Shown piece by piece: positions 2,635 through 32,512 of a stretch of DNA of 64,000 bases (the stretch's first letter is position 1; each line of letters begins with the position of its first letter). Below the pieces are notes generated by a model. That model saw nothing but the letters and a program-made list of their open reading frames with translations, made no database searches and was not told where the DNA came from. The DNA is from Desulfomonilia bacterium (GTDB taxonomy: Bacteria > Desulfobacterota > Desulfomonilia > UBA1062): the NCBI GenBank assembly GCA_963664325.2, contig CAXXDQ010000003.1, positions 672,001 through 736,000 on the forward strand, written 5' to 3'. The position numbers and the translations under genes were made by a program.

Positions 2635-2760
2635 TCATGCTAGGACAAATCGCACCCCGGCCTGGGAGGGCGACACGGGGGATAAATCTGGTGAATCTGG
2701 GTGCCAAAACCTTGACATATATCAACAACAGTGTCAAGTCGCGTCGATTCAGGTGCTATA

Positions 2761-9646: not shown

Positions 9647-9762
9647 GCTCTGGCATGTTTGGAACAATTTAGATCTAAAGAGTGTTGTACATGTAGGAGC
9701 TACTTTGATCTAAAGTGGCTCCTAACATTCAATATCAGACAAAATTATTGGGAGGGGGTATC

Positions 9763-13191: not shown

Positions 13192-13253
13192 TAATATTCA
13201 ATAAATGGGCAAGCGTGAGTATGAAATTTCAAGATAACATGAGGAGGTTTCTT

Positions 13254-14249
13254 ATGAAAAAGGGATTACTATTTATTATTAGTTTATTTCTGCTAATTTT
13301 GAGCGGGTGCATTCTATCTAAAACACCCAACACGAATAATGTTACTATGAAAGTTGGAGAGCAGAAGACATTCAGTGTGAATGTGTTTCCACCCGGAAGT
13401 TCATATGAATGGACCTTGGATGGGTCGCCAGTTTTGGCCCCAGGTAACTCGTATACTTATACAGCTCTAGCAAGAGGGCACAGCTTGGTAGTGAGGGTCA
13501 CACATCTTTTGGGCATGAATAAGCAGGCATGGTATATCTCACAGGAAGACCCAATCACCGAATTATTGAACTCCCTTTTGTACATCCCAGCTGGCACGTT
13601 CATGATGGGGAGCACAGACTACTGGTCGACAATACCGATTCATCAAGTTACGCTCTCGGAATTTTATATGAGTGCCTATGAGGTGACTCAAGTACAATAT
13701 CAGGCAGTCATGGGTACGAACCCTTCATATTTCCAAGCGAAATATGGTTACCCAGGGAGATATAACTACCCAGTGGATTGGCTTACTTGGTATGATGCTA
13801 GTGCTTTCTGCACACAACTCTCTGCGATGACGGGGCGCACATTTACACTTCCGAGTGAAGCTCAGTGGGAATACGCCTGCAGATCTGGAACTACAACTCC
13901 ATTCAGCTTTGGTAGCGATGATGAACAACTCGATAACTATGCTTGGTACGGAGAAAACTTAGATACTGGAACCACTCATCCCGTAGGCGAAAAGCTGCCG
14001 AACGCTTGGGGGTTATATGATATGATGGGTAATGTCTGGGAGTGGTGTCTGGATTCTTGGCATGAAAATTATGTGGGTGCACCCACAGATGGTAGTGCTT
14101 GGGAACCTGATATAGGTACCTACCGCTTAACTCGTGGCGGTAGTTTTTTAAGTGAAGATTCATGGAACATGTGGTCTTCAAGTCGTAATTATTGTAACCC
14201 ATCTTGTAAAAATAATAACTTTGGTTTTCGTATCATCGAAATTCCATAG
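13254..14249 (+). CDS. lipoprotein, Ig-like + FGE-sulfatase (SUMF1/CLec-fold) domain
   Basis: Lipobox LSGC; IPAGTFMMGS, LPSEAQWEYACR, PNAWGLYDMMGNVWEW, RGGS...GFR. Confidence 0.9.
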   Translation: MKKGLLFIISLFLLILSGCILSKTPNTNNVTMKVGEQKTFSVNVFPPGSSYEWTLDGSPVLAPGNSYTYTALARGHSLVVRVTHLLGMNKQAWYISQEDPITELLNSLLYIPAGTFMMGSTDYWSTIPIHQVTLSEFYMSAYEVTQVQYQAVMGTNPSYFQAKYGYPGRYNYPVDWLTWYDASAFCTQLSAMTGRTFTLPSEAQWEYACRSGTTTPFSFGSDDEQLDNYAWYGENLDTGTTHPVGEKLPNAWGLYDMMGNVWEWCLDSWHENYVGAPTDGSAWEPDIGTYRLTRGGSFLSEDSWNMWSSSRNYCNPSCKNNNFGFRIIEIP

Positions 14250-14421
14250 GGTTAAGGAAAGGTTTTGATGGATGGCACAAGGCGTAAATTCCATGTAATC
14301 TATTTACTCATATAAGGCATTATGTTCAAAAAATTATAAAACTGACTTATTGCTTCACCTGATACAGCATACCAGAACATTCATCTATGAAAACAGGAAT
14401 TAAAAAGTTGAGGAGGGTACA

Positions 14422-16137
14422 ATGAAAATCAGAAAGCATCTTATCATCATATTGGTGATCGGGCTATTCATGACTGCTTGCGGACCCAAGGTTGTCTCGA
14501 CTGATCCTTGCAAAACATGTGAGAGCCCCTGGTACACTACAGTGAATGCGACCTTCAATCAGAACATCAACCCCGCCACTGTCAACTCCACCACATTTAA
14601 GGTTGAAAAAGATGGCAGTCCTGTTCCCGGGACAATAATGGTCAGCGGCAAGACTGTGACCTTTATGCCAACCAGTTATTTCGATGTCCCTCATCCATAT
14701 ACCGTCACACTGACAAAGGGGATCAAGAACACATCGGGCTTTGCTATGCAGAAAGATTATTCATGGCCTTTCACGACTGAGCATGGATGGAAAAACCCTA
14801 AGAACATCGATGACAACATAAGTCCCAATGGAACTGGAGCTTACCTTTTGGGACATATTGAAGGATCCGAGAGCATTGTTACGAATGAAAAAAATGATGC
14901 CATTATTACATGGAGACAAGAAGGTGGAGGATCATACGATCAGATTTTCAAGAGCGAATATCACAATGGTATTTGGACCCATCCTTCTGGCCTCTCAGAC
15001 ACGGTCAGCCCTGATGGCACCAAAGCTAGTGAGCCTCGTGTTGGCTTGGACAATGAAGGCAATGCAATAATTGTTTGGCGCCAATATGTTGGACAACCAG
15101 ATGCAAGTTCTTATCATATGTTTAAAAGGGAGCGTCATGACGGTGTTTGGGAACCTAAACCGTCATTAACAGATTATTTTGATCCAGGCATTTCTAGCGG
15201 AAATAGTTCTTTTGTCATGAGTAGCGGAGGTGATGCAGTTTTCTCCTATGGTGAAAATCTAAATGCTCCTTCTGGTCGTAGCAGATTGTTTGCGAGTGAG
15301 TATCGGGATGGAGTATGGAATCATCTTGGACCTGATGACTATATTAACCCAGATGGCCCGGATTGGACCGAAAATGGAAATATAGCAATTAATGCAAATG
15401 GTGATACGATAATAACTTGGTATCAACCGGATGCAAGTGGCATATACCAGACCTTCAAGAGTGAATACAGGAATGGTGTCTGGATACGTCCTTTGAACCT
15501 ATCTGACAACATTAGCCCTGATGGTTGGGATGTAAGTTTCCCAATGGTCGCAATAGCAGACAATGATGATGCAATCATCGTGTGGCAGCAATATGATGGG
15601 ATCAGCAATGTCAGGATATTTAAGTATGAATATCGTAGTGGGTCTTGGTCGGGTCCTACATCTATCAGTCCTGTTGGAACATCGGCCGATTTCCCCCATG
15701 TGGCAATGGATGCCAATGGCAATGCAATCATAACATGGACACAGATTGATGAGAGTGGCTATTCCCAGTGCTTCAAAAGCGAATATCGAAATGGTGTCTG
15801 GACACATCCGTCAAGTATTTCCGATCACATCAGCCTCGATGGAACAGAAGTATTTGGTACGAATGTGGCCATGGATTCAAGCGGATCAGCCATCATAACA
15901 TGGTATCAGAAATGTTATAAAGGATATATTCAGGTATTTAAGTGTGAGAAACGAAATGGGTCATGGATATGCCCAACAGGACTCTCAGATCATCTCAGTC
16001 CTGATGGATCAGACACAGTAGCACACTCATATTTTTCTCCAGTTGTTGCAATGGATGGCAAAGGTAATGCGATAATAGCATGGAGTCAGTACGACAGTGA
16101 CCATTTCTATCAGGTTTTCAAGAGCGAGTACCGGTAA
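14422..16137 (+). CDS. lipoprotein, Big_5 + repeated beta-propeller-like module
   Basis: Lipobox MTAC; Big_5-like start; repeated VAMD..G.AIITW.Q...QVFKSEYR units. Confidence 0.85.
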   Translation: MKIRKHLIIILVIGLFMTACGPKVVSTDPCKTCESPWYTTVNATFNQNINPATVNSTTFKVEKDGSPVPGTIMVSGKTVTFMPTSYFDVPHPYTVTLTKGIKNTSGFAMQKDYSWPFTTEHGWKNPKNIDDNISPNGTGAYLLGHIEGSESIVTNEKNDAIITWRQEGGGSYDQIFKSEYHNGIWTHPSGLSDTVSPDGTKASEPRVGLDNEGNAIIVWRQYVGQPDASSYHMFKRERHDGVWEPKPSLTDYFDPGISSGNSSFVMSSGGDAVFSYGENLNAPSGRSRLFASEYRDGVWNHLGPDDYINPDGPDWTENGNIAINANGDTIITWYQPDASGIYQTFKSEYRNGVWIRPLNLSDNISPDGWDVSFPMVAIADNDDAIIVWQQYDGISNVRIFKYEYRSGSWSGPTSISPVGTSADFPHVAMDANGNAIITWTQIDESGYSQCFKSEYRNGVWTHPSSISDHISLDGTEVFGTNVAMDSSGSAIITWYQKCYKGYIQVFKCEKRNGSWICPTGLSDHLSPDGSDTVAHSYFSPVVAMDGKGNAIIAWSQYDSDHFYQVFKSEYR

Positions 16138-16230
16138 AGCAGGTGGAACGAGATTGGTGAGATAACTGAATCAAGTCCTGATGATTATAGGAACAAAAAA
16201 ATAAAATTTTAAAATCAATTGGAGGGTACA

Positions 16231-17289
16231 ATGAAAAGATCATTATTATTACTTACCTTACTTTTTGTCTCACTTATATTGGGCGGCTGCATCATGTCTT
16301 CAACACCATCTTCGCCTGTGTCAGTTTCTGCAGGTGATTCGATAACATTCAAGGTCACAGTGTTTCCTGTGAATATAACTGTGCAGTGGTACGTCGATAC
16401 AAATCTGGTTTCGGGTACTACAGAAAAGTCTTTCATCTATTCTCCCGAAGAAGGTGATGTTGGCACTCACACCATAACCATAAAGGAGACCTCGGGATGC
16501 ATTTTCCTTGGTCAGCATTCTTGGGAAGTTGAGGTCATTTCTAGCATAAAGGATATCACGCAGTTCACTATTCTCGGCATAAATGGCACGATAGGGACTA
16601 ATACGATAGCCCTAACAGTACCCTATGGGACAAGCCTTACATCTTTAACACCTACGATAACTCATACAGGAGCGAGCATAAACCCAGCATCCGGAGTAGC
16701 GCAGAACTTTACAAATCCTGTACAATACACAGTTACAGCTGAAGATGGATCAATGAAGAATTATATGGTTACCGTAAGTGTTGCCCCAAATAAATCTTAT
16801 ACATTTACTGCTACTTGGACCAATAGGCCTTATAGTACAGCTACAGAAGAAGGTACTAGAGGAAATGAAGGAGATGGTGATGATTCTACTTATTGGGGAA
16901 GTTATGTATATACTAATATTGATGGGGATTTTCATAATGAGAACACTGCCCATTTAACTTATACTTATAGTACTCCTCAAATAGTTACATCTGTTCGTTT
17001 TAAGATGATTCAATATGCGTATAGTACTGGCAATAATTATGAATGGAATACATTATCGTCTTCTTTATGTTTATATGATTGGTCTGATAATTTAGTAGCT
17101 ACATTATATAGTTTTAGTAAAACAACACCCCGTGCAAATTATACAAATGATACGGGAGATTTAACTTATAATACTGGTTGGGCTAATATTAAAAGAGTAG
17201 AATTAAATATGTTTGGTGTAGCTCATGGGGATGATGGTGGAGGATCTCGTCATAGGCTTTATGAGTTAACTGTTAATACTGCTGATTGA
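16231..17289 (+). CDS. lipoprotein, Ig-like domains + unrelated AT-rich C-terminal domain
   Basis: Lipobox LGGC; KDITQF..IALTVPYGT.LTSLTPT..NFTNPVQYTVTAEDGS.K.Y.VTV Ig-like (DUF5018-like) repeat. Confidence 0.8.
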   Translation: MKRSLLLLTLLFVSLILGGCIMSSTPSSPVSVSAGDSITFKVTVFPVNITVQWYVDTNLVSGTTEKSFIYSPEEGDVGTHTITIKETSGCIFLGQHSWEVEVISSIKDITQFTILGINGTIGTNTIALTVPYGTSLTSLTPTITHTGASINPASGVAQNFTNPVQYTVTAEDGSMKNYMVTVSVAPNKSYTFTATWTNRPYSTATEEGTRGNEGDGDDSTYWGSYVYTNIDGDFHNENTAHLTYTYSTPQIVTSVRFKMIQYAYSTGNNYEWNTLSSSLCLYDWSDNLVATLYSFSKTTPRANYTNDTGDLTYNTGWANIKRVELNMFGVAHGDDGGGSRHRLYELTVNTAD

Positions 17290-17301
17290 TAGGAGGATCC
17301 A

Positions 17302-18315
17302 ATGAAGAGATCATTATCAATTCTTATTGTGCTTATTTTCATGTCTTTACTGAGCGGGTGCATATTATCCAAAACACCTAAAACAGATACCATTGATATA
17401 CAATTGGGCAAGCAGGTAACTTTCAGTGTGAATGTTTTTCCATCCAATGCTACCTATACCTGGACATTGGATGGTACGCCCCTAATGTATGTATTTGGGA
17501 AATCGTATGTGTACACTTCTACTGGGGGTAATCACAAACTTGTGGTTAAGGCGAAACAATCTTTGGGTACAGATACCCAGACATGGAATATCACCTGTGA
17601 TCCAATTGTCGGTTTATTGAACAGCCTGGTCAGTATCTCAGGTGGCACATTCATGATGGGGAGCACAGATAATGAATATTCATGGGCGAAATACACCACA
17701 CCGGTTCACGAGGTGACAGTTCCGAGTTTTGAGATCGGCGCCTATGAGATTACTCAGGCGCAATATACAGCGATCATGGGTATTAATCCTTCTTATTACC
17801 AAGAGGGACATGGCTACTCTGGCACCGAGAACTACCCGGTGGAAAATCTTACCTGGTATGAAGCAAGAGAGTTTTGCACAGCTCTCTCGGTACAGACAGG
17901 ACGGACCTTCGACTTGCCAAGTGAAGCGCAGTGGGAATATGCCTGTCGAGCAGGAACTACTACACTCTACAGCTTCGGTGATGCTGATGAACTTCTAGCC
18001 ACCTATGGCTGGTACTATGCAAACAGCAATGATGCAACCCATCCCGTAGGCACGAAACTGCCGAACCCCTGGGGCTTGTATGATATGCATGGCAACGTGT
18101 GGGAGTGGGCTCTGGATTCATGGCACTTTAACTATGATGGAGCACCAACAGATGGCAGCGCATGGGATCCTGATACTGGCCCTTACCGCATGATTCGCGG
18201 TGGCAGCTTTTTCTCCGACCATGCGGGGAGCTGCCGGTCGGCGGCTCGTGGTGTCCTCTACCCCCCCAGCTACGCGAACCGGGGTCTAGGCTTCCGCATC
18301 GTCGAAATTCCATAG
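17302..18315 (+). CDS. lipoprotein, Ig-like + FGE-sulfatase (SUMF1/CLec-fold) domain
   Basis: Paralogue of 13254-14249; GLYDMHGNVWEW, RGGS..CRSAAR..GFR. Confidence 0.9.
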   Translation: MKRSLSILIVLIFMSLLSGCILSKTPKTDTIDIQLGKQVTFSVNVFPSNATYTWTLDGTPLMYVFGKSYVYTSTGGNHKLVVKAKQSLGTDTQTWNITCDPIVGLLNSLVSISGGTFMMGSTDNEYSWAKYTTPVHEVTVPSFEIGAYEITQAQYTAIMGINPSYYQEGHGYSGTENYPVENLTWYEAREFCTALSVQTGRTFDLPSEAQWEYACRAGTTTLYSFGDADELLATYGWYYANSNDATHPVGTKLPNPWGLYDMHGNVWEWALDSWHFNYDGAPTDGSAWDPDTGPYRMIRGGSFFSDHAGSCRSAARGVLYPPSYANRGLGFRIVEIP

Positions 18316-18894: not shown

Positions 18895-20061
18895 TCATCT
18901 TCTTAGGAGTCGTTTGAACTGTTTCTGGCTCAAAGGTAAAAAAGGAACAACCGATACATTAGGTCCGCACGAAACTGCAATGGACTTCGAGATCCCCGCT
19001 CCGATTCTCGCTTTCTCGGCAGCAATCACTTTGATAGCACGTGCCCCTTCTATAACATCACCACCAGCTAATATTATGGATTCGATAATCTGTGCTCCTC
19101 GTCTAATATATACACCGTCACCGATGATGGCACATTTCACTTTAACGTCCTCTTCGATCGTTACCCCATCTCCAATCAAACATGGAGGTACGAGCCTAGC
19201 GCTGTTCGCTATCTTGGCATTCCGGCCAATATGCACCTTGTTTATTTCTGGCCCTAACAATGTTGAAAAATTGCCCTTGAGAGCATTCAATTGGGCGGCG
19301 TGATAAATGCCTAAGGTGCCAATGTCTATACGGTAACCCAAGCCAATGTCAAACGCCATGCAAGTTCTGCTCGAAACGAGTCTAGGAAACAAGTTACTGG
19401 CAAAATCGATGAATCCTTCCCTAGGGATTTCAAATAGGGCCTCCCGGCTCATAATGTATACAGCTGCGTTCGCTAAGGGATTCATGTAATCGGGAATCTT
19501 TTCCAAGAGCGCCTTCTCAGTAAACATTGTTATACGTCCTTGCTGGTTCACTTCCATTACGCCGTAATTCGTGCGGGTACCACGTGGGGGATACACAGGA
19601 TCTCTATCGTGATAATCGTACAGGAATGCTGAAAAATCGGGCTGGTGGGATAGAATCGTCAAGTCAGCTGCCATAGCTTTGTGGTTTTCCATCATAGCTG
19701 AAAAGTTCGCTGATAGAAGACTGTCGCCATAGACAATCATTACAGGATCAGAAAGGGAGTCTCTGATACGAGTGGCGACATCATATGAGCACCCAGCCGT
19801 GCCGCGCCATGGAAAGTCTTCTATATACCTTATACGCAAACCCCACGCACTCCCATCTTTATATCGTGATTTCACTTCATCATGCCGTCCTGACGAAGTG
19901 AAAACAACATCCTCAATGCCTTGGGAGCTTAGTTCCTTAAGCAAGTAGTCGAATAGTGGTCGCCCGAGGAATGGAACCATACATTTGACTATGTTCTCTG
20001 AAAGTGGCAGCATTCGGCTCGCTGTCCCTCCATTTAATAAGATTACTGTGATATCCTTCAT
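18895..20061 (-). CDS. sugar-phosphate nucleotidyltransferase (mannose-1-P guanylyltransferase-like, with hexapeptide LbH domain)
   Basis: VILLNGGTASRMLPLS..KCMVPFLGRP, GTAG, VYGD, FTEK, NAAVY, DIGT; C-terminal IGDGV repeats; start placed at ATG 20061. Confidence 0.85.
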   Translation of the reverse strand: MKDITVILLNGGTASRMLPLSENIVKCMVPFLGRPLFDYLLKELSSQGIEDVVFTSSGRHDEVKSRYKDGSAWGLRIRYIEDFPWRGTAGCSYDVATRIRDSLSDPVMIVYGDSLLSANFSAMMENHKAMAADLTILSHQPDFSAFLYDYHDRDPVYPPRGTRTNYGVMEVNQQGRITMFTEKALLEKIPDYMNPLANAAVYIMSREALFEIPREGFIDFASNLFPRLVSSRTCMAFDIGLGYRIDIGTLGIYHAAQLNALKGNFSTLLGPEINKVHIGRNAKIANSARLVPPCLIGDGVTIEEDVKVKCAIIGDGVYIRRGAQIIESIILAGGDVIEGARAIKVIAAEKARIGAGISKSIAVSCGPNVSVVPFLPLSQKQFKRLLRR

Positions 20062-20074
20062 TATAGATATTTCT

Positions 20075-22327
20075 TCAAACCCAGAAAGGCTCATCGGGAG
20101 TACCTTTTGTTGCCCACTCTTCAGCTAGGCGATAAGAAGAAAACTTCCTAAAAACCTCGAACAAGGCGTTCATATACAGATTCTGATGAAAATGCCTAGT
20201 GCAGTAACCACAAGCTTCTCTATCCACTGGCAATGGCCGCCTTTGAAATGCCTTATGATCCTCGCCAAACCAGATATTCTCCAACTCATTACCAGCTTTT
20301 GGGTCAACAGCAGTTCCGGCTGAATGTCGAAGGGATCCCATTTTGTATCTCTCCCTCAACTTCGATTCGCAGAAATTGTCGTCGAATAAAAAGCAGCATG
20401 GATAAACATCTCCATTGGCAGTGATTTTACACGTTAACCTGAGAGCCATACACGTGTAATCAGCCCGCCTGAGATCATGTAGCCGTTTGTTTACGGGTTC
20501 GCCTTTAGCCAAGCCTGAATAGTCGAAAATATTGTTATTTATCATCGTCTCCAAATATTTGAAATCAAAGCGGCTATTCAGACCTTGCAACGATACTCCT
20601 TCTCTTATCACTTTTCTCAACTCCATCTCGTTACACAGAAAACTTCGCCCCTGTTGATCAGGGCCATGTGCTATTTTGAATCTGACACTGTATTCTTTGG
20701 CGGTGAGCCATTCTGCTATGGCGAGAAAGTTCTCCTTGCCATTCAACAATTCTTTCACATTGTCTTTTTGAATTGTGTAGCACACTTCAACATTCTTAAA
20801 CTTGGCTTTTTCAAAAGACATGATCGTTGCTTTCACATAGTCTAACGAACCATTTTTCCTTATATCCCTGTAGATATCATCCGTGAAGGCATCAAGTGAT
20901 AATTGGACCCAGCTGCACGAGTTGGCAATTCCTTCTGCTTCCGCGATATTGATGCCACGGACTTCGCCATTTTTTTCCGGGTCCTGACGTATGCCATTAG
21001 TCAGCAGACCTATTTTTAAATCACATTGTTTTTTAGCGTAACGAAGAATATGCAAGATATCTGGCCTGGCAAGCGGCTCACCTCCGGATATTATCAATGC
21101 TCTTGTTTGCAGTTTCTTAATGCTATCCAGAATCCTTTCTATTTCCACCGTCTCTAACTCTTCGTCTGGATTATAGAGTGCATGGTGATTGCACATCTTA
21201 CAAGTGGTTGTACATCTATTGGTGACCAAGAATTGAATACAAGCGGGTCTGACTTTTGTTGATTTCCATGGTGGTAAGCCAAATTCAGATACGAATATGT
21301 TGGCCGCATAGGCATTTAGCGCTTCTGCTGTGTTGTTTCTCGTTATTGAGTGGAGGGGATAGTTCTCCAATTTGATTGTAGCGATATCATTCTCTGCCTC
21401 CTGCTTTTTCTTGTCATATTCCTTTATCGGATCGGCCATAAATTTGATCCTTGTGATATCGTCTCGAAATGGTTTAAAGTGATGGTCAAAACTCCTAGGA
21501 GCCAAGCGGCGTCTCTGAAAAACCAACATGGGTTTTGATAGGCCGCTCTTCGGATCTTCAAAAACGGTTCGAAGGTCCAAATGGAATCTCTCATCACGAT
21601 GATCCAACTTAAGATGGAGCATTCCGTTTCTGATCTGTCCCGGATAAACACTTAATTCTAGTTTTTCCAGGTCATTTGGTTGGTGGCTTTTCTTTTTACC
21701 TTCTTGCAACATAGTATTCGATTGGTTAATCTCCTCCAAGAATGTACGACGTATCTCCTTAAAATTACCAATCGCTTCTTCAATCTGGATGCTGAGCTTC
21801 TTGACCGCCTTAATGGCTTCTTCGTTTTCACTCTCGCCACCTTTCAACGGATTCAGGTCCAATACCGGCTCATATGGGTTTTGAATTACAAAATGAAGGC
21901 AACTCCCATGACGCAGTGCCGCTAGGATTTTATTGGACAGATCTCGCCGGCCAATTTCATACGATTCCATGTCGTGGTTGAAATAGAATTCATTCCCACA
22001 GAGCCAAGAAAAACAAGAACGACCTACAATCGTCAATTCGCCTTTACGTGTGGTAATCTCATCCAGTGTTTGCATTGGCCCGTAGCGAATCGGTACGCTG
22101 CTACGGTTTGGGTAGTACTTGACGGTCGGAGTTATGAAGTCTTCAGCATTGGCAACCAATATAACAACCAGCGATACTATAACAGTTAGAATTAAACTTG
22201 TGCCAATTAGTAACCAACCTCTTAACGGTGTAGTTATGCCAATTATAGTTATGATAAGAGTAAATAAGGTTAAAACACTTGGTGGAATTAACCACATTGA
22301 CTTTATGTATTTCTTCATATTTTGCAT
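20075..22327 (-). CDS. membrane-anchored radical SAM/SPASM-like protein with N-terminal 2 TM helices and DUF5919/PLD-like domain
   Basis: CTTTCKMC (CxxxCxxC), ISGGEP, LLTNG, QLSLD; C-terminal C..GDVYPCC..CGYC; two N-terminal hydrophobic helices. Confidence 0.85.
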   Translation of the reverse strand: MQNMKKYIKSMWLIPPSVLTLFTLIITIIGITTPLRGWLLIGTSLILTVIVSLVVILVANAEDFITPTVKYYPNRSSVPIRYGPMQTLDEITTRKGELTIVGRSCFSWLCGNEFYFNHDMESYEIGRRDLSNKILAALRHGSCLHFVIQNPYEPVLDLNPLKGGESENEEAIKAVKKLSIQIEEAIGNFKEIRRTFLEEINQSNTMLQEGKKKSHQPNDLEKLELSVYPGQIRNGMLHLKLDHRDERFHLDLRTVFEDPKSGLSKPMLVFQRRRLAPRSFDHHFKPFRDDITRIKFMADPIKEYDKKKQEAENDIATIKLENYPLHSITRNNTAEALNAYAANIFVSEFGLPPWKSTKVRPACIQFLVTNRCTTTCKMCNHHALYNPDEELETVEIERILDSIKKLQTRALIISGGEPLARPDILHILRYAKKQCDLKIGLLTNGIRQDPEKNGEVRGINIAEAEGIANSCSWVQLSLDAFTDDIYRDIRKNGSLDYVKATIMSFEKAKFKNVEVCYTIQKDNVKELLNGKENFLAIAEWLTAKEYSVRFKIAHGPDQQGRSFLCNEMELRKVIREGVSLQGLNSRFDFKYLETMINNNIFDYSGLAKGEPVNKRLHDLRRADYTCMALRLTCKITANGDVYPCCFLFDDNFCESKLRERYKMGSLRHSAGTAVDPKAGNELENIWFGEDHKAFQRRPLPVDREACGYCTRHFHQNLYMNALFEVFRKFSSYRLAEEWATKGTPDEPFWV

Positions 22328-22371: not shown

Positions 22372-22425
22372 GTCCATCAGGCATCACCGGCGGCTGAAAG
22401 CCTCCGGTGCATCCTTTTGTTATAC
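22372..22425 (-). other. integron attC site (54 bp; R' degenerate)
   Basis: GTATAAC-aaaaggatgcaccggaggctttcagccgccggtgatgcct-GATGGAC; R'' overlaps the stop codon; same family as the 18757 site. Confidence 0.75.
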
Positions 22426-23103
22426 ATCTTTTACTGGTGGTTTTCCAATTCTCGATAGCTTCAAGTTCAAAGATTTCTTACGTTCATCAAGCCTTTTAGG
22501 CTGGACAAAAACAAAATCAAACAAAGAATCTAAGACTTCAAGAAGCCACTCTGCTTCACCGTTTTCAACATCTACAATTTCACCAGTGGAGACATCTTTT
22601 TCCGGATGAGCTGCAAAATTACCGATGGTTCTAATTGCGTCAATCGCTTCAGCTAAGTAAGATGGAGTTGTTTTGTTTTTCAAGAAGTCATCAATTTCTT
22701 TAGCGAGACTTGATTTCTTTATTTTTATTTCCTCCCTCAAAATACATTGCAAGAGTCTCCGACTTATAGCAGCACTTGCTTTTGGGCTTAGATTTAGTAC
22801 AGCAACAGCCTCTAAAAAATCATTCTTATAAATTTCTGGTACTTCTGGTTGGACAGGACGAATAGCCATTTTGGGGTAAAGAATTTCCTCGGAAGACACT
22901 GATGTTAGACTTTCACCGTATTTATCTTTTTTATATTCTCCTTCTTCTAAGATTACAATAAGCTCCTCGCATAATGGACAAAAACCATGGGTTACAGCAA
23001 AGCCACTACCTTTCGGTTCTTCCTCTTTATTTAAAGAATGGTACACAGCGCTATCAGGACTTTCAAAATGGATCCCCTTACCACAATGCGGACAAATATT
23101 CAT
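22420..23103 (-). CDS. DUF4145 domain protein with N-terminal Zn ribbon (cassette)
   Basis: CPHC..CPLC; EA..VL..SPKASA...RR.LQ, IRTIGNFAAH. Confidence 0.85.
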   Translation of the reverse strand: MNICPHCGKGIHFESPDSAVYHSLNKEEEPKGSGFAVTHGFCPLCEELIVILEEGEYKKDKYGESLTSVSSEEILYPKMAIRPVQPEVPEIYKNDFLEAVAVLNLSPKASAAISRRLLQCILREEIKIKKSSLAKEIDDFLKNKTTPSYLAEAIDAIRTIGNFAAHPEKDVSTGEIVDVENGEAEWLLEVLDSLFDFVFVQPKRLDERKKSLNLKLSRIGKPPVKDV

Positions 23104-23196: not shown

Positions 23197-23796
23197 CTAT
23201 TTCCAGGGTTCCATGGCTCTTTCTTCAAAAGTTTTTAAAAGCCTCGGCCCGACATTAATGGCCCATTTGGCTGAACGTTTATCTACTTGTGCCCCATGAG
23301 CTGCTTGGTTCAATAGGCCAATCATATCTGTAAGAATTGAATATTCTTCTTTACTTATAAGCTGCTTATTCAATACCTCAAGCAAAATGCCTCCAATTCC
23401 TCTGGCTCGAATCTCATGACCGCGAGAAATTGCTAAGGTGTTAAGTTTCTTCTCAAGCTCTATTCTCAATCCAGCAAGTGCAAGATTAGGATCTTGATCT
23501 GCAACTAACATAAATGAATATTCAGGGTCTTTCCCTTCCTTTTCGTTTACTGGTGAGAGTAAGCCTATCGCATCGGCTTTATCAGAGGTTTTTTGAAGAT
23601 CTTGAAATTCAACCTTCCAACCACCTGGAAATTCTAAGGTTTTAAAGAGCGGCGCAAGCCAAGGGATTATTGCTGCTACAAGCAGTACAATTGTTACATA
23701 ATCGATCCCAAGCTTGGGCCAAACAAGATGGATAAGCGCAAGCAAGAGAGCTGAAATTGTTACAATCTGTTTGAGTTTCTTATTATTCATTCTCAT
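23197..23796 (-). CDS. membrane-anchored hypothetical protein (cassette)
   Basis: Two N-terminal TM helices, helical cytoplasmic domain with NQAAH (HEPN-like); bounded by attC sites. Confidence 0.75.
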   Translation of the reverse strand: MRMNNKKLKQIVTISALLLALIHLVWPKLGIDYVTIVLLVAAIIPWLAPLFKTLEFPGGWKVEFQDLQKTSDKADAIGLLSPVNEKEGKDPEYSFMLVADQDPNLALAGLRIELEKKLNTLAISRGHEIRARGIGGILLEVLNKQLISKEEYSILTDMIGLLNQAAHGAQVDKRSAKWAINVGPRLLKTFEERAMEPWK

Positions 23797-23933: not shown

Positions 23934-25843
23934 CTAGTATTTGCGGAGATATTTCATATCACGTATAGCATCTTTTAAGAACTCTGCGAAATCATCTCTC
24001 TGAATCAGAGCGCGTCGCACCTTCGAGCCGGTTATAGGCACAATTAAAGGGCTCGACGCATTTCCTGCTTGATTGCGGAGTGTGCGTATTGCATCTTCCG
24101 TGAAACCGCTTCCAGACACGAAGAACGCCAATTGAATGCCGCGGACTTGTGCAACCTTGTGGGCAAAGCTCCCAACTTCCTCCAGCGGAACGTCGGTGTT
24201 CCAGTTCTTACATTCCACCAATACTTCACCTCCGTAATCAGCCCAAAACGGTTCACTTTTCTTCATCTCTAGTACAAGGTCTATTTCGCCGTTTTCCGTA
24301 TTGTAATCACGCCTGACAATTGAGAAACACTGACCGAAGAACCTAGAAGAAAACTCCTCAAACAGCCTGCCTTTGTCATGTGATGCCAGCCCCGCATCGC
24401 CAGTGCGTTCAAGGAGGGCGAGAAGGTCGTCGTAGACGTCGACGGGCTCACGATCACTTAGGCTTCTATTCGCGGAGTCGATCAGTTGTGAGACGAAACC
24501 TTCGCCAACTTCGTGGATGAAGCTAGAGATCACATATTGAGTAAGGCGCCTATTTCGTGTTCTTCCGTGCGAGGACACATTTTGCCGCTAGCAGTATTTG
24601 GCGCTTCTCCACAGCAGCCTCAATGATAGGCCCGACGTCTGGAAGGAGACCGCATGCCATGACTACGAACATTATGGAGATCGAAGCGATCGACCATGCC
24701 GACGACTCTAGCCGGTTCGCTGCTGACAGCACGGGCGGAGTAGTACTCAAGGAACGTAAGGTGTATGAAGCAAACCTGGTTTGGGGAAATCTCAAGGAGA
24801 ATCCCTGTGGTAAGCAACTCGTCAAGGAATTGCTCGTCAGCATCTCTACGTTCCCCGTGAGCCTCAAGGAAATCGCCGAGCATGCCTCTAATTTCCGCCC
24901 GCGAGGCAGAGTTCTGAGCCCGCACAATCAGAAGTTCATAGCCTATCTGTTCCAGTGCGCTTTGCTTCGCGCGTAAGGAAATGCTTACTCTGGATACGCC
25001 CTTTGCTCGTTCCCATGTGGAGAGGAGAAAGTCTGTACAATCGGCATAAAGGGAGGTCAGATTATCCGGCAACATCCCTCTTGATCGAAACACCTGCCAT
25101 AGGAGGTGTAAGAGCAGCGGGTTAGAGGCGAGGGCATATAGGGTAAGGTGAGATTGGATTGCCTGGAGAAACCTATCGGCATATTCCGGCTGTTCCGCGG
25201 ACAGTCTACGTGACAACGCTCGGATGGATCCGATATCAAAGGGTTCAAGGTGGAAATAGACGAAGCCACGAATTGGCGAGGAAAGCCCGGAAGGACGCGA
25301 GGAAGCAAGCACTTTCAAGTCTGGATGGGCATGTCCAAGAGAACCCAACTCATTCACGAAGTGGTAGCGACGGGCTGAGTCAACTTCGTCGATCCCATCA
25401 ATAACTATGACAAAGCGATTGTCGCGGAGAAGAGAGCGCACCTGATCTGCTTGGTCGTCCTTTCCGATGCGCTGACAGACAATCTGGCCAAGCCGGTCCA
25501 CTAAAGTGTCCCCGCTCGCAAGTGAAGCAACATCAGGGGCACGAAAGAAGAGAGGACACGGTGCGAACTTCGTATCTTTCAAAAAGGCTTGTGCGAGAGT
25601 CACCGCGTAGAATTTTAGGAGGGTGGTCTTCCCAGCTCCCGGAGGACCCAGGATTGTCAGTCTCATGTGTTTGTCAATCGTCTGCCGTGAACCAAATAGC
25701 TCGCCGGTGGCATCTGCAACCTGTGGCTCGACAAAGAGCTTGTCGATATCTTGGCGAGTCGGACCTGCAACCGGCACTAGGTAGTCCAGGTACCCCAAGT
25801 CATGCAAAGCGAATTCGGCGATTCTTTTGAGTAATGACTTCAT
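23934..25843 (-). pseudogene. NACHT NTPase fused to a C-terminal Mrr-like PD-(D/E)xK restriction endonuclease, interrupted by two +1 frameshifts
   Basis: GPPGAGKTT, IVIDGIDEV, SSRP, NPLLL, FIHLTFLEYYSA; KGRLFE..GEIDLV..VECKNW. Removing one base near 24667 and one near 24573 joins three ORFs into 635 aa. Confidence 0.75.
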
Positions 25844-26494: not shown

Positions 26495-27724
26495 TTAGAA
26501 ACGAAGGGGAACAGATGAATCTTCTACTTCCACGAAGTCGTATGCATATTTCAAAAGCAACGAAACAACGGCAATTCTACCAAAATCTTTATTTGCAGTA
26601 GGTCCTTGGACAATCTTTTTTATTGGTAGAAGAGTACATTTGTTAACTACAGGAAATCTGAGTTCAGTATATGGGACAATTGAAGCATCCGAAGTACGAA
26701 ATTTCAATGCTTCTAAGTCATTACTTAAACCACTTGTTAACACACATCTCCATTCTTTCTCTTCATAAAAGCTTGGATGTTTGAAAGTGTATAGAAACTC
26801 TTCGATAATTATACCTGCAACATGACCAATGTATGCAATAATATTATTCTCCTCTTCTGCTGGACGGCCTATTGCATTCTTCTCAATACATTCATTTATC
26901 TGAGAGATAATATCATCGATAATTTTAAGTTGTATTTCAGGGTCATATATCACTCTCCTCAGGAAGAACCCAGGGTCCGTTATGGAAAGTTCATTTATTA
27001 TAGTTGAATCAAACCCTATGCAAAAACCAACCGAGCCTCCTGTATAGCCACGCCATTGGCTTAGTAAATCACCATTTTCACAAAAGCATAATAAAAATCT
27101 ATAATTACTTGGCCGGGTCTTGAAGACTTCTTTGCATCGTTCCCAAAACACTCTATGTTTAGCAGATTTTTCCCTACTCGAAATTTCTTTCTCTATTCGA
27201 TTAAAGATCAGTTCACGTGCATACTCAAGTTCTGAAGAATCATTTAAAAAGCGGAAGTCAGTTGCCCAAAGGTTCCCCTCTTTAAGAATCCCGATTAGAC
27301 CAGGAATTTTCGTATAGTGAAATAACAATGGCGGTCGCTGTCGCTGGTATTGTGACCAGTACTTATACAAGTTCGTGTTAAGCTCGGTTAAAAAAGATGT
27401 ATATGGTCCAATATCAACAAAGGAATGCTTACGACCGAAAAATACATCCGGATTTGCTGGTGATTTTAGTAAACGAGTATACAACTCAGGATACTTTGCT
27501 GGCTTAGTAAGATTATTCAACCAACCACAATTATTACAAATTCCGGCAGCGTTCGATAAATTAGGAAGATATTGCCCTTCAATAAGACTACTGTGACAAT
27601 ATCCACAAACGAAGCTGCCTGTCCCTTCTGTTTTTATCAAAACAGTCTTGTCAGAATTTAACTTTAATTTACCCATGTACTCACCACAACTGTCCGACAC
27701 TAGTGTTAACGGAATATTTTTCAT
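26495..27724 (-). CDS. DUF2971 domain protein with N-terminal Zn-finger-like extension
   Basis: LFHYT..G..GIL....LWAT....LNDSSE, CFCENGDLLSQWRGY, KHPSFYEEKEWR; CGYC..CNNC. Confidence 0.85.
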   Translation of the reverse strand: MKNIPLTLVSDSCGEYMGKLKLNSDKTVLIKTEGTGSFVCGYCHSSLIEGQYLPNLSNAAGICNNCGWLNNLTKPAKYPELYTRLLKSPANPDVFFGRKHSFVDIGPYTSFLTELNTNLYKYWSQYQRQRPPLLFHYTKIPGLIGILKEGNLWATDFRFLNDSSELEYARELIFNRIEKEISSREKSAKHRVFWERCKEVFKTRPSNYRFLLCFCENGDLLSQWRGYTGGSVGFCIGFDSTIINELSITDPGFFLRRVIYDPEIQLKIIDDIISQINECIEKNAIGRPAEEENNIIAYIGHVAGIIIEEFLYTFKHPSFYEEKEWRCVLTSGLSNDLEALKFRTSDASIVPYTELRFPVVNKCTLLPIKKIVQGPTANKDFGRIAVVSLLLKYAYDFVEVEDSSVPLRF

Positions 27725-28266
27725 TTGTACTCCCTTATACTTAACTAATAATTATATTACATATAATGCCTTATAGATTACCTTCCGGGGGAAAGGTCAC
27801 ATTCAAGAAACTTATTACTCCGACGATTATCTTATATCGCAGATTGTTAATTCTATTTCATTGTCTAATTTGTAATCCAAACAACTTGACTTTCAGTATG
27901 GTGAAATTATTATATCTATGTATAATTATTCAGCACACATTTTCACAGTGCTATTTGAAATGCCGAAGTAGTATCTATTGATTGATTTTCATGTAGTTCT
28001 CCATACACCAAAACACATCTTGAGTCAGAGAATTAAGACCAAAATTAAGGAATAGAAATCAGCATTCGAGTAGTTCTCCGTACCGTTGAGGAAGACTACT
28101 AAGAATCAACAAAAGAGGAAACAATTATGGCCAGAATTCATAAAAACATAGATAATAAGGCCTTTTTCAATAAGGTTTATGATTATCTAAAAAATATTTG
28201 CTCAAGTAATTTAACAGTCAAAGAACAAATCAATAAGTTCAAAGTAAGTTATTGATAGGAGGTTAT

Positions 28267-30462
28267 ATGGGTTCACTCGAAGAAGGAAATGAATATCATA
28301 CTCTTTCAGTAAAGGATCTTCTCGAGGCACGGGATGCATATCATGTTTTTCTTATGAGGAAAAAAAACGTTATTGGAACAGCAATCGGTTTATATCGTGT
28401 TTGCAAGGATAAAACAAAGCCCAGAACACTTAAGAACTCTGAAGTACGCAGCGGTTACTCATGGCCATGTGTGCTGGTGTTTGTAGAGGGATGGGTTCAA
28501 AAAAAGAGCTTTGGTAAGGCTCAAAAAGCATCATATAATGATTATATACCAAAATCTCTCTATCTCCCGGATGGTCGGGAAATCCCTGTGTGCGTTATAC
28601 TGTCAGAGTGGGGACAAAAAAATCCGGAAACAATTCTGAAGATGAAGTTTCCAGGAAATGTGATTGGCGGCGGTTATCCTATCATGACAAAAGTGCAAGG
28701 AGAAGAACGCTGGGCAACCCTGGGATGCCTAGTCAGTGATGGTAGGCTCACTTATGGATTGACTAACGCACATGTAACAGGTCAACCAGGCGAAAGCCTG
28801 TATACGATAATCAATGGCAATGAAGAAGAGATTGGTAAATCATCATCAAAAAACCTCAAGAAGATACCTTTTACTCAAGTTTATGAGAGCCTGCCTGGTA
28901 AACATGCATTGGTAAACCTTGATATCGGCCTGATCGAACTGAACGACATAAACAATGTCACATCGCAGATATTCGGATTAGGAAAGGTAATGGGTCTACT
29001 TGATGTTAATCATGACACATTGTCCCTTAAGCTCATTGGTTGTCCAGTAATGGGATTTGGATGTTCATCTGGTCTTATGAAAGGGGAGATTATTGCCCTT
29101 TTCTATAGGTATGAAACTGCGGGAGGATATGATTACATAGCAGACTACCTGATCGGTCCACGAAGTGAAAAAATCATGGTTGGTAAGTCATCCTTTAGCC
29201 CTAGGAAGGGTGACTCTGGGACCTTGCTGGTGATAGACAAACCTAAAAGTTCTGAACATATGAAGGCCATAGGTGTTCTGTGGGGTGGACAAAAAGATAT
29301 CACTAATGAATCCGAACAGCCTTATGGTTTAGCGACAAACCTTGGGACTATATGCAAGAATATGGACATTGAGCTTGTGTCTAGCTGGAACTCAAACTAT
29401 GACACTTTTTTTGGTGCATATGCCCACATAACATTGCCAGGAATGTGTCTCAAAGTGATCAAAGATAAAAAGTTGAAAACGCTTATGGAGAACAATGCTG
29501 ATCGATTCAGCTTGCCACTTGAAGAGACTGCTGTGAACGATACTAAGGGATTGAGCAAGAAGCATTTTGTTCCATTGTCCGATGTTCCAGACTTAGTATG
29601 GAAGAGTAGAGGTGGAGAATTCCAGCGGAGCAAGGAAGGGCCGAACCATTTTGCAGACATGGATCAGCCCAATCCATCAGTTGGCGGCAAGACCCTTCTT
29701 GATATATGTGAAAATGTTAAAAATATTGATCCCGATGTGTGGGTGAACTTCTATAAAGAGTTAAAGGCCAAAGACATGGGAGCATTGCCGTTCAGGATAG
29801 CACAAATATATGACGCACTTGTTAAGTTTGCCAGGCAGGGACATGTAACTAATTTCATCTGCGCAGCTGGCATACTGTCTCATTATGTTTTTGATTCATG
29901 TATGCCACTCCACATCAGCTATATGCACCATGGGGATCCTGACGGGCCAAAAGATAGTAGTAACAAATCAATTTCGTACAATGTACATGCCGAATTCGAT
30001 AACCAGATGGTTGAATACTACGTTGAAACACTCAGGAATAACCTGGATAATTATGTGAAGGAAAAAGATGATGTAGGTGAACCAGTAAAACGAGGGAGCA
30101 TAAAAACAACAAAAGATGCAGCTAGAGCAGCTGTGACATTGATGTATAACACAGTGAATAAATATGCGAACCCTAAGAACATAGTGAAGGATTATGAGAA
30201 ACTGGTTGATGAGAATAAACGTGCACGCTGTGCCCAGTTGTGGGATAAATATGGGGAAGGAATGCAGCACGCAATGGCAGAGGCCGTTGTACTGACAGCC
30301 CGATTGTGGGAAGCTGCTTGGGACAATGGAAATGGGAAAAACAACATCCACAATACAGATTCCATTCCTGAAGACGACCTGAAAAAACTCTATGAGACAA
30401 AGACAGGATTTCTTGACTCAGTTAGACTCTCAGAGATCAAGGGTACTATGACATGGACATAG
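28267..30462 (+). CDS. Nal1-like trypsin-fold serine protease fused to an S1/P1 nuclease / Zn-phospholipase C domain
   Basis: TNAHV / NLDIG / GDSG triad; FGAYAH, DVPD, NHFADMD, SHYVFDSCMPLH, VHAEFD Zn ligands; RBS AGGAGG before ATG 28267; no signal peptide. Confidence 0.8.
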   Translation: MGSLEEGNEYHTLSVKDLLEARDAYHVFLMRKKNVIGTAIGLYRVCKDKTKPRTLKNSEVRSGYSWPCVLVFVEGWVQKKSFGKAQKASYNDYIPKSLYLPDGREIPVCVILSEWGQKNPETILKMKFPGNVIGGGYPIMTKVQGEERWATLGCLVSDGRLTYGLTNAHVTGQPGESLYTIINGNEEEIGKSSSKNLKKIPFTQVYESLPGKHALVNLDIGLIELNDINNVTSQIFGLGKVMGLLDVNHDTLSLKLIGCPVMGFGCSSGLMKGEIIALFYRYETAGGYDYIADYLIGPRSEKIMVGKSSFSPRKGDSGTLLVIDKPKSSEHMKAIGVLWGGQKDITNESEQPYGLATNLGTICKNMDIELVSSWNSNYDTFFGAYAHITLPGMCLKVIKDKKLKTLMENNADRFSLPLEETAVNDTKGLSKKHFVPLSDVPDLVWKSRGGEFQRSKEGPNHFADMDQPNPSVGGKTLLDICENVKNIDPDVWVNFYKELKAKDMGALPFRIAQIYDALVKFARQGHVTNFICAAGILSHYVFDSCMPLHISYMHHGDPDGPKDSSNKSISYNVHAEFDNQMVEYYVETLRNNLDNYVKEKDDVGEPVKRGSIKTTKDAARAAVTLMYNTVNKYANPKNIVKDYEKLVDENKRARCAQLWDKYGEGMQHAMAEAVVLTARLWEAAWDNGNGKNNIHNTDSIPEDDLKKLYETKTGFLDSVRLSEIKGTMTWT

Positions 30463-32334: not shown

Positions 32335-32356
32335 TACTGGGGCAGCGCTGGGGCAA
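32335..32356 (+). repeat. putative integrase arm-type binding sites (right end)
   Basis: TACTGGGGCAG-CGCTGGGGCAA, same orientation and 11-bp period as 904-925. Confidence 0.75.
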
Positions 32357-32427
32357 ATGGAGAAAAAACAAGATTAAGGGTTAAAGATGGAATGCTATTA
32401 TAACCTATATAATAGCGATTTAACAAG

Positions 32428-32512
32428 TGCCCGGGGCGGGGGTCGAACCCGCACGGCCTCAGAGGCCGAGGGATTTTAAGTCCCTTGTGTCTGCCGATTC
32501 CACCACCCGGGC
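32428..32512 (-). tRNA. tRNA-Leu (anticodon TAA)
   Basis: GCCCGGG acceptor stem, TGGAATCGGCAGACAC D arm, AGGGA-CTTAAAA-TCCCT anticodon arm, long variable arm, GTTCGA T loop; CCA not encoded. Confidence 0.97.

Follow-up and report, generated by a model that had tools for sequence, protein, structure and literature searches.

Trypsin-like proteases activate separate pro-nucleases of the metallo-beta-lactamase fold in Hachiman, AVAST and canu (excerpted text of PMC12799240), and four further protease-effector modules are described in the excerpted text of PMC12642450. In these antiviral modules, as far as the excerpts go, a latent zinc-dependent nuclease serving as death effector is licensed by the site-specific cleavage of a linked serine protease; the effector, of metallo-beta-lactamase fold, has a gene of its own, the protease carries a fused sensor (STAND, Hachiman, DRT and others), and a gate is removed by the cut. 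Here we describe a gene within a 64,000-nucleotide stretch of DNA from a Desulfomonilia bacterium (assembly GCA_963664325.2, contig CAXXDQ010000003.1, positions 672,001 to 736,000; the whole stretch is referred to as the window) that carries effector and protease in one chain. Its product joins a serine protease related to rice NARROW LEAF 1 (NAL1) to a domain with the fold shared by zinc-dependent phospholipases C (Zn-PLCs) and S1/P1 nucleases; no sensor is evident, and the chemistry proposed for it is the making of a metal-ligating N terminus. The fusion is a variant of the proteolysis-gated effector theme and not a separate kind. We give roughly even credence to the reading, built on sequence comparison and on analogy with solved relatives, that the protein is a single-chain pro-enzyme that would be switched on when its own NAL1-type protease cuts before an aromatic residue, W/F382.

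Each half of the protein has well-described counterparts. All 378 N-terminal residues match rice NAL1 (structures 7y77, 8pmm and 8has) in sequence and fold, with the catalytic triad kept, whereas NAL1 lacks a zinc-enzyme domain. According to the excerpted text of PMC12012508, NAL1 cuts other proteins (FZP and OsTPR2) within a cage of six subunits and is active only as this hexamer. The C-terminal half has the same all-helical fold as the S1/P1 nucleases (P1, 1ak0; S1, 5fb9; AtENDO2, 3w52; SmNuc1, 8qjl) and the Zn-PLCs (1ah7 of Bacillus cereus, 8cqm and the clostridial alpha-toxins); its motifs W-G-x-x-G-H and H-x-x-G-D-x-x-Q-P-L-H-x-S-Y align to AtENDO2, and an aromatic residue at position 1 is common to both. 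The known S1/P1 and Zn-PLC enzymes are secreted and have their W1 exposed by signal peptidase or by a separate protease (Mpl), whereas the fusion is cytoplasmic; its "propeptide" is a 381-residue protease, itself the presumed activator, and its C-terminal domain exceeds the known enzymes in length by about 85 residues. One of these relatives, the phosphatidylcholine-specific phospholipase C (PC-PLC) of Listeria (8cqm, among the Foldseek matches of the domain), is a zymogen that becomes active when its N-terminal propeptide is taken off. As related in the excerpted text of PMC10576769, its proenzyme, with a propeptide of 26 residues, is inactive, a single residue added before W1 abolishes activity (via reference 51 of that paper), and every substitution of W1 but W1F strongly lowers activity.

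A similar layout is found in Caulobacter LypC, in which an N-terminal trypsin-like protease, a linker and a C-terminal nuclease-type domain make up a protein of about 70 to 80 kDa. The protease serine of LypC is essential for cell lysis, and the nuclease domain was aligned by its authors to NucA, EndA and Dns, which have a different fold (PMC13236601). Unlike the fusion, LypC acts with a CARD-protease and an NLR-like ATPase encoded in one operon, and the three-gene CARD operons of Wein et al. (excerpted text of PMC10312443) are grouped with it as CARD-NLR-like effector-protease fusions; no such operon partners were conserved in 81 loci of the fusion family. A Caulobacter vibrioides genome included as a control gave a match to PF02265 that was below threshold and might be LypC, and PF25819 was found in no control genome. 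No description of a NAL1-like protease joined to an S1-P1/PLC domain was found in the literature searched, although paper supplements may contain family lists of relevance; the main text of PMC12642450 as excerpted does not use "S1-P1," "phospholipase C" or "Nal1," and its supplements may list more families. The fusion family is widespread, as set out below, and so far uncharacterized.

The gene, delimited from a list of open reading frames (ORFs) and its translation, occupies positions 28267 to 30462 of the window on the forward strand, stop codon included. The ORF can be read from a TTG (28252 to 30462, 736 amino acids [aa]) or from an ATG at 28267 (731 aa, protein P0001). Direct reading of the sequence places a Shine-Dalgarno motif, AGGAGG (28257 to 28262, forward strand), 4 nucleotides (nt) upstream of this ATG, which is thus the likely start. 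Neither a hydrophobic N-terminal segment nor a stretch of 19 residues resembling a transmembrane helix was detected when P0001 was scanned. Among 196 full-length database relatives, 195 likewise lack a hydrophobic 12-residue segment at the N terminus, none has a transmembrane-like 19-mer, and 3 carry a loose motif resembling a twin-arginine translocation (Tat) signal. A signal peptide-like N terminus was thus not found in the query or in 195 of these 196 relatives.

The protease module spans aa 1 to 378 (28267 to 29400, forward strand) and comprises an N-terminal region and a trypsin-fold domain, as delimited by Pfam, a profile search of Protein Data Bank (PDB) sequences and Foldseek. Its catalytic residues are His169 (codon 28771 to 28773, within LTNAHV; H in 270 of 271 relatives), Asp219 (28921 to 28923, within NLDIGL; D in 270 of 271) and Ser317 (29215 to 29217, the serine of GDSG within KGDSGT; S in all 271), all on the forward strand and all invariant in an alignment of 32 relatives (A1). 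The Pfam family Nal1_C (PF25819) matched the query with 47.2 bits against a cut-off of 26.1 and was above the cut-off in the whole-genome search too, while the profile built from A1 retrieved rice NAL1 among PDB sequences at an E value of 7.8e-16 (profile positions 81 to 358). The full-length AlphaFold model had a mean predicted local distance difference test score (pLDDT) of 87.3 and a predicted template modeling score (pTM) of 0.55. In Foldseek it matched NAL1 at an E value of 9.4e-23 over 385 to 413 aligned columns, with a template modeling (TM) score normalized to the target of 0.68 to 0.77, and the match took in the region N-terminal to the protease barrels; the next matches were alpha-lytic and Streptomyces griseus-type proteases, at E values of 1e-8 to 1e-6. 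A PADLOC "trypsin-like" model, PDLC03017, matched aa 53 to 371 at an E value of 3.9e-24, a match that was not relied on since its parent system was not established, and no NCBIfam family was matched by the protein. Prediction of a dimer from two copies of aa 1 to 378 gave scores of 0.23 and 0.25 against a mark of 0.42, values that weigh neither for nor against a dimer.

The effector domain spans aa 382 to 731 (29410 to 30459, forward strand) and was assigned to the Zn-PLC/S1-P1 nuclease fold from an AlphaFold 2 model, Foldseek and a PDB profile search. Modeled alone, it reached a pLDDT of 93.3 and a pTM of 0.93, and Foldseek ranks 1 to 38 consisted exclusively of alpha-toxins, PC-PLCs and S1/P1-type nucleases, with probabilities of 0.08 or less from rank 39 onward. 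Nine residues resemble metal ligands: F382, H387, D442, H461, H539, D543, H549, H574 and D578 (D or E at 578 across the family). They were provisionally matched to the zinc ligands of P1 nuclease, W1, H6, D45, H60, H116, D120, H126, H149 and D153; the W1-G-x-x-G-H start and the H-x-x-G-D-x-x-Q-P-L-H block alone were aligned by a tool to a solved nuclease, the other ligand positions being placed by pattern. That alignment came from a profile of 33 C-terminal domains (A2; the window and 32 other loci, out of 70 loci with coordinates), in which residue 1 of the domain aligned to the mature W1 of AtENDO2 ("WGKEGH") and "HYvGDacQPLHiSy" aligned to "HFMGDIHQPLHVSY". The preliminary description of this DNA, made from its letters, had put forward a cytoplasmic protein in which an intact trypsin-fold triad is joined to a domain with the S1/P1 zinc-ligand pattern, starting F-G-A-Y-A-H at 29410; all of this was borne out, the triad by H169, D219 and S317, the above-threshold Nal1_C match and the NAL1 matches in both PDB searches, the location by the scans of the query and its relatives, and the start by the arithmetic of the reading frame, nt 29410 being 28267 + 381 × 3, the first base of the F382 codon.

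Both active sites are kept together across the family. For this analysis, 340 sequences were gathered (268 database proteins and 72 ORFs from loci), of which 271 cover positions 169, 382 and 578 and 69 were dropped as fragments. Of these 271, 269 have an intact triad, 266 keep all nine ligand-like positions and 264 do both, leaving seven exceptions; that the ligand-like residues are retained in so many speaks for a functional metal site. The (W/F)GxxxH start that follows the linker is well kept: residue 382 is W in 234 sequences and F in the other 37, 267 of the 271 have G383, and all 271 have H387. The strict alternation of W and F at 382 matches the tolerance of Listeria PC-PLC for W1F.

The two domains meet at a junction of aa 376 to 383 (29392 to 29415, forward strand), where the proposed scissile bond would lie between codon 381 (F; 29407 to 29409) and codon 382 (F; 29410 to 29412). 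In the full-length AlphaFold model, pLDDT falls below 50 at residues 1 to 5, 303 to 306 and 379 to 383 only. Position 381, the candidate P1 residue, is Y in 200 of the 271 sequences, T in 35, F in 12, S in 9, V in 6, R in 5, I in 3 and W in 1, while E or D occupies P2 (position 380) in 174 and Pro occupies P3 (position 379) in 121. The spacer between the terminal "WN" of the protease and W/F could be measured in 188 sequences, and in 186 of them it is exactly 6 residues long.

Should residue 381 serve as P1 for the protease of the same protein, it would be expected to co-vary with the S1 pocket. Coupling was computed across 267 nonidentical sequences, with residue 381 classed as aromatic or small. 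The mutual information between this class and column 341 was 0.557, against 0.337 for the runner-up column; G341 occurred with an aromatic 381 in 206 of 210 sequences and a non-Gly residue at 341 (A, R, Q, E, L, K or S) with a nonaromatic 381 in 50 of 57, examples of such pairs being Y381 with G341 versus T381 with A, R or Q341. On a FastTree tree built without columns 337 to 345 and 376 to 383, there were 10 changes in the class of residue 381 and 11 in the Gly/non-Gly state of 341. Across 10 independent pairs, 341 differed in the same direction in 6 to 7, in the opposite direction in none and not at all in 3 to 4 (sign test, P of 0.016 to 0.031). When 687 variable columns were scanned in this way, 341 ranked first (6.55 same, 0 opposite), 343 second, 312 fourth and 338 tenth, so that 4 of the top 10 columns fell within two segments, 311 to 314 and 337 to 343, that together make up 11 columns (hypergeometric P of 7e-6); in the reverse scan from column 341, column 381 ranked second of 694.

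Residues 311 to 314 precede the catalytic Ser by three to six residues, and residues 337 to 343 fall on and just after a strand of the model, 334 to 340, that follows this Ser by about 22 residues. We take segments 311 to 314 and 337 to 343 to form the S1 pocket by homology to chymotrypsin positions 189 to 192 and 213 to 217, an assignment made from the fold and not from model coordinates. On the same footing, together with the coupling, codons 341 to 343 (G-Q-K; 29287 to 29295, forward strand), right after W339-G340, would form the pocket wall. The direction of the coupling is also sensible, since bulky P1 residues accompany Gly341 and small ones accompany residues that have a side chain there, as in chymotrypsin versus elastase. 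Such coupling is not expected if residue 381 never enters the pocket, and self-cleavage at Y/F381|W/F382 fits the co-variation seen in the alignment.

Two joined domains, conservation of both sites, an invariant junction, the coupling of 381 with the pocket, the lack of a partner gene, a cytoplasmic location and a patchy spread are the observed basis of the mechanism that we propose. The N-terminal half would act as a NAL1-type serine protease and the C-terminal half as a tri-zinc phosphodiesterase of the phospholipase C/P1 nuclease fold, the active site of which would form only if the aromatic W/F is the true N terminus of the mature enzyme. Since F382 (W in most relatives) is internal in the fusion, the uncut protein should be inactive. 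The protein's own protease would take residue 381 (F here, mostly Y in relatives) into its S1 pocket and cut the 381|382 bond, more likely in trans between subunits than in cis, because the spacer is fixed at 6 residues. The cut would create the N terminus that completes the metal site and turn the effector on. Methionine aminopeptidase needs a small second residue, and an N-terminal Trp or Phe is not exposable by Met removal; a cytoplasmic protein cannot gain such an N terminus in this way, which leaves endoproteolysis as the sole route, and a built-in endoprotease would be a logical solution. Cleavage, its placement at 381|382, activation of the effector and restraint until a signal arrives are all steps that we infer, the last of which would turn the protein into a suicide or defence switch. 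Restraint would be needed because a cytoplasmic nuclease or lipase is otherwise unguarded, there being no immunity-like partner gene.

Several observations weigh against this mechanism. The match of the C-terminal domain to its fold is weak by some measures: its Foldseek E values range from 4.2e-3 to 0.4, with none at or below 1e-3, and the query scored below the Pfam gathering thresholds of both S1-P1_nuclease (PF02265; 17.2 to 19.3 bits versus 29.5) and Zn_dep_PLPC (PF00882; 19.8 to 22.1 bits versus 26.8). The P1 residue varies (Y, T, F, S, V, R, I or W), a spacer fixed at 6 residues may leave too little slack for cleavage in cis, and the full-length pTM of 0.55 gives little confidence in how the model places the two domains relative to each other. 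The coupling rests on 10 independent contrasts and a quick FastTree tree; column 341 is the best of hundreds, so that its sign-test P value alone would fail correction, columns 338 to 343 are adjacent and hence nonindependent, and the S1 pocket was assigned by chymotrypsin-fold homology without model coordinates. Column 642, in the C-terminal-domain helix 636 to 645, roughly matches 381 in the strength of its coupling with 341 (5.64 same, 0.07 opposite) and could mark an inter-domain contact or a lineage effect. Lastly, mutation of putative nuclease residues in Caulobacter LypC, the one protease-nuclease fusion that has been studied and one with a different nuclease fold, was without effect on lysis (PMC13236601), so that a fused effector domain need not be the killing part.

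The family is large and its distribution is sporadic and horizontal. At least 1161 proteins matched at E values of 1e-3 or less among 8000 scored candidates; the 120 matches listed were mostly 730 to 820 aa long with 96 to 100% query coverage, some being named "Nal1-like putative serine protease" or "S1/P1 Nuclease," with precomputed PF02265 on 13 of the 120 and PF00882 on 3. An exhaustive search of cluster representatives at 50% identity yielded 989 proteins at E values of 1e-3 or less and 247 at 1e-30 or less. In a scan of one genome per species (185,579 species), 332 of 437 pattern matches encoded relatives, from many phyla and mostly from soil lineages, while among the window genome and 40 of its relatives the fusion was present in the window genome alone (1 of 41). 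Plasmids carried a relative in 5 of 72,556 records, mostly megaplasmids. A phage origin was rejected, as none of 21 pattern matches in viral contigs was a relative. A stand-alone C-terminal domain was likewise rejected, since no stand-alone or secreted form was found among the 23 inspected of 103 short matches, all 23 being fragments of fusions that either retain the end of the protease or begin within the domain. A relative exceeding 1280 aa, as larger sensor fusions would be, was not encountered, which is weak evidence. Two relatives of unusual composition were P0256 (583 aa), with an N-terminal DUF4062 joined to a relative of the protease module that ends shortly past the junction, and P0198 (906 aa), with a C-terminal methyltransferase domain; these are either rare architectural variants or gene-call fusions.

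Within the window, the gene is cargo of a 31.7-kb integrative island at 732 to 32486, with a GC content of 0.424 against 0.464 in the right flank. The island is bounded by a 59-bp perfect direct repeat, its left copy (732 to 790) at the island end beside a tyrosine integrase gene (945 to 2171) and matching exactly its right copy (32428 to 32486), which is the 3' part of a tRNA-Leu(taa) gene identified by ARAGORN (32427 to 32512, reverse strand); as the 3' part of tRNA-Leu holds the right copy, the fusion gene lies inside the island. Its neighbors there, all on the reverse strand, are genes for a DUF2971 protein (26495 to 27724), which gave a weak PADLOC match to PDC-S31 (E value of 1.2e-6), a NACHT NTPase (24620 to 25843), an Mrr-like nuclease (Mrr_cat; 23934 to 24578) directly downstream of the NACHT gene, an unassigned 199-aa ORF (23197 to 23796) and a DUF4145 protein (22420 to 23103). 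The NACHT and Mrr genes could form a two-gene NLR-like system. The NACHT gene is on the strand opposite to the fusion gene, with the DUF2971 gene between, and was not found beside homologues.

No partner gene is conserved. When 1070 ORFs from 81 loci were compared with one another by BLAST, the largest neighbor cluster was present in 4 of the 81, and conserved partner genes were rejected, the few recurrent neighbors being metabolic (a thiamine pyrophosphate enzyme, a short-chain dehydrogenase/reductase, HlyIII, a coenzyme A-transferase and glyceraldehyde-3-phosphate dehydrogenase). In the same 81 loci, neither an immunity-like adjacent gene nor a sensor of the STAND, Hachiman or DRT type was conserved. 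A 42-aa ORF at 28127 to 28255 (forward strand) has a Shine-Dalgarno-like AAGAGGA, and its end lies 11 nt upstream of the fusion gene's ATG. Considered as a possible inhibitor, it was rejected as part of the system, no similar ORF being present at any other locus, including that of the closest relative (L001). Among the 135 nearest ORFs, taken from 38 loci (L001 to L038) with at most two per side, PADLOC identified scattered single matches (DpdF, PsyrT, PDC-S68, PD-T4-6 and RecD-like) with mad2 and PbeA twice each, and Pfam assigned mostly metabolic, housekeeping or transport families, with integrase and transposase families each having fewer than 2 members. Local synteny was seen in Bradyrhizobium and Acidobacteria. 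Of three annotated plasmid copies, one on a Sphingobium plasmid adjoins an anti-phage dGTPase, ParDE, a Tn7-like element and an integrase, a second adjoins an integrase and an IS91 transposase, and the third has a nondescript setting. The defence-island setting is thus real in the window and not a property of the family. What the preliminary description had said of a single gene is accordingly supported, with no neighbor cluster in more than 4 of 81 loci and, as weak evidence, no form longer than 1280 aa, while its defence-like cargo held for the window island (NACHT, Mrr-like, DUF4145 and DUF2971 genes) and did not extend to the homologues in general, which have mostly ordinary neighbors. Its central proposal of a zymogen in defence stood as to architecture, gained indirect support as to zymogen logic (from co-conservation, the junction, the 381-pocket coupling and the Listeria PC-PLC precedent), and as to defence held only locally.

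A more specific role is possible and is put forward tentatively: a one-protein abortive-infection or suicide switch, in which an idle cage protease of the NAL1 type would receive a signal (oligomerization, nucleotide binding or a phage product are candidate triggers), cut Y/F|W/F in its own or a sister chain, and so, with the new aromatic N terminus completing a tri-zinc site, unleash a nonspecific cytoplasmic nuclease. Rather unlikely, and the best-surviving alternative to the triggered pro-enzyme, is a built-in maturase without a trigger, in which a single constitutive cut at 381|382 after folding would yield a mature enzyme with a specific, nonlethal job such as the turnover of particular RNAs, nucleotides or cyclic dinucleotides. 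Such a maturase accounts equally for the co-conservation and the P1-pocket coupling, and the mostly metabolic and housekeeping neighbors of homologues, their local synteny in Bradyrhizobium and Acidobacteria, and the lack of a sensor domain or longer fusion all sit well with it. Narrow substrates do occur in this fold, as SmNuc1, one of the Foldseek matches, was solved with GMP, which the entry title calls a product of c-di-GMP (9emg). The sparse and patchy spread (332 in 185,579 species and 1 of 41 related genomes) is atypical for a housekeeping gene, however, and the gene is island cargo in the window. The known members of the S1/P1-PLC fold are broad, nonspecific enzymes, which also counts against a maturase.

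That the same zymogen logic would instead release a phospholipase C attacking the cell's own membrane is less probable still. The query itself scores slightly better with Zn_dep_PLPC than with S1-P1_nuclease (E values of 1.6e-4 and 1.1e-3, respectively), and the best Foldseek E values of the C-terminal domain belong to clostridial alpha-toxins and PC-PLCs. The last ligand-like position (578) is E in 218 of 271 sequences, and the pattern H-x-x-x-E is of the PLC type. Across the family, however, S1-P1_nuclease is the better model, matching 30 of the 33 C-terminal domains of A2 at E values of 0.01 or less with a best of 2.5e-12, against 27 of 33 and a best of 2.1e-5 for Zn_dep_PLPC. When the A2 profile was searched against PDB sequences at E values up to 10, all four sequences retrieved were S1/P1 nucleases, namely, AtENDO2 (two, at 1.5e-3), SmNuc1 (0.72) and P1 nuclease (1.2), and the W-G-x-x-G-H start aligned to residues 1 to 6 of mature AtENDO2. 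Target-normalized TM scores from Foldseek were 0.60 to 0.61 for S1 nuclease and lower, 0.53 to 0.55, for Bacillus cereus PC-PLC. A K/R-rich C-terminal tail is present in 29 of 196 members. H461-F-x-D464 resembles the nuclease base-binding motif, and the W-to-H spacing of 5 is a nuclease trait; because of the family-level Pfam result, this spacing and the H-F-x-D motif, a nuclease is favored over a lipase, and the effector is more likely the former.

A lower probability again is given to the protein working uncut, either as a protease with a substrate-binding C-terminal domain or as an enzyme with two activities. Caulobacter LypC is the model for this, since its protease serine is essential while the mutated "nuclease" residues are dispensable, and removal of its C-terminal domain destabilized the protein, a hint of a structural role (PMC13236601). 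Against it stand the nine ligand-like residues kept in 266 of 271 fusion sequences, the coupling of 381 with pocket-lining columns, and the finding, in the excerpted account of Listeria PC-PLC, that an N-terminal extension abolishes activity in a solved relative. A secreted nutrient-scavenging nuclease or an interbacterial toxin is very improbable: classical S1/P1 nucleases and Zn-PLCs are secreted, but neither a secreted nor a stand-alone form was seen among the relatives, 195 of 196 lack an N-terminal hydrophobic segment, none has a transmembrane-like 19-mer and 3 of 196 a loose Tat-like motif, no trafficking domain was seen, and no adjacent immunity gene was conserved in the 81 loci.

The remainder of the island carries genes of varied type. 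A DUF3987/NrS-1-type primase-polymerase protein is encoded at 2731 to 5196, and the region 8084 to 18315 (forward strand) encodes large surface-type proteins with Big_5, fibronectin-III and DUF5018 domains together with two proteins containing a formylglycine-generating enzyme (FGE)-sulfatase domain (13188 to 14249 and 17302 to 18315); FGE domains are among the sensors fused to defence proteases in the excerpted text of Evans et al. On the reverse strand, the gene for a 750-aa radical SAM/SPASM protein (20075 to 22327) overlaps the start of one for a nucleotidyl-transferase/hexapeptide protein (18895 to 20094), and the two may be a modification or peptide-maturation pair. Two tandem copies of the motif ACTGGGGCA(A) lie just inside each island end (906 to 930 and 32336 to 32362) and are candidate arm-type sites for recombinase binding.

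In papers of 2023 to 2026, the licensing of death effectors by proteolysis was proposed as a common logic of bacterial immunity, and the fusion family, if the pro-enzyme reading is true, would extend it in three ways: by a new effector fold, that of S1/P1 nucleases and Zn-PLCs; by the simplest layout, a single chain that holds protease and pro-enzyme alike and has no partner gene; and by a chemical reason for latency, in that the metal site needs a free N terminus otherwise unobtainable in the cytoplasm. The proposed cut site, the P1-pocket pairs and the W/F rule are directly and cheaply testable, and the family offers bacterial relatives in which to study how NAL1-type proteases choose their substrates. 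Should the suicide switch prove true, this would be the first proteolysis-gated effector activated by the creation of a metal-ligating alpha-amino group and the first enzyme of the S1/P1 fold that kills within the cell, and it would hint at the function of the bacterial ancestors of plant NAL1.

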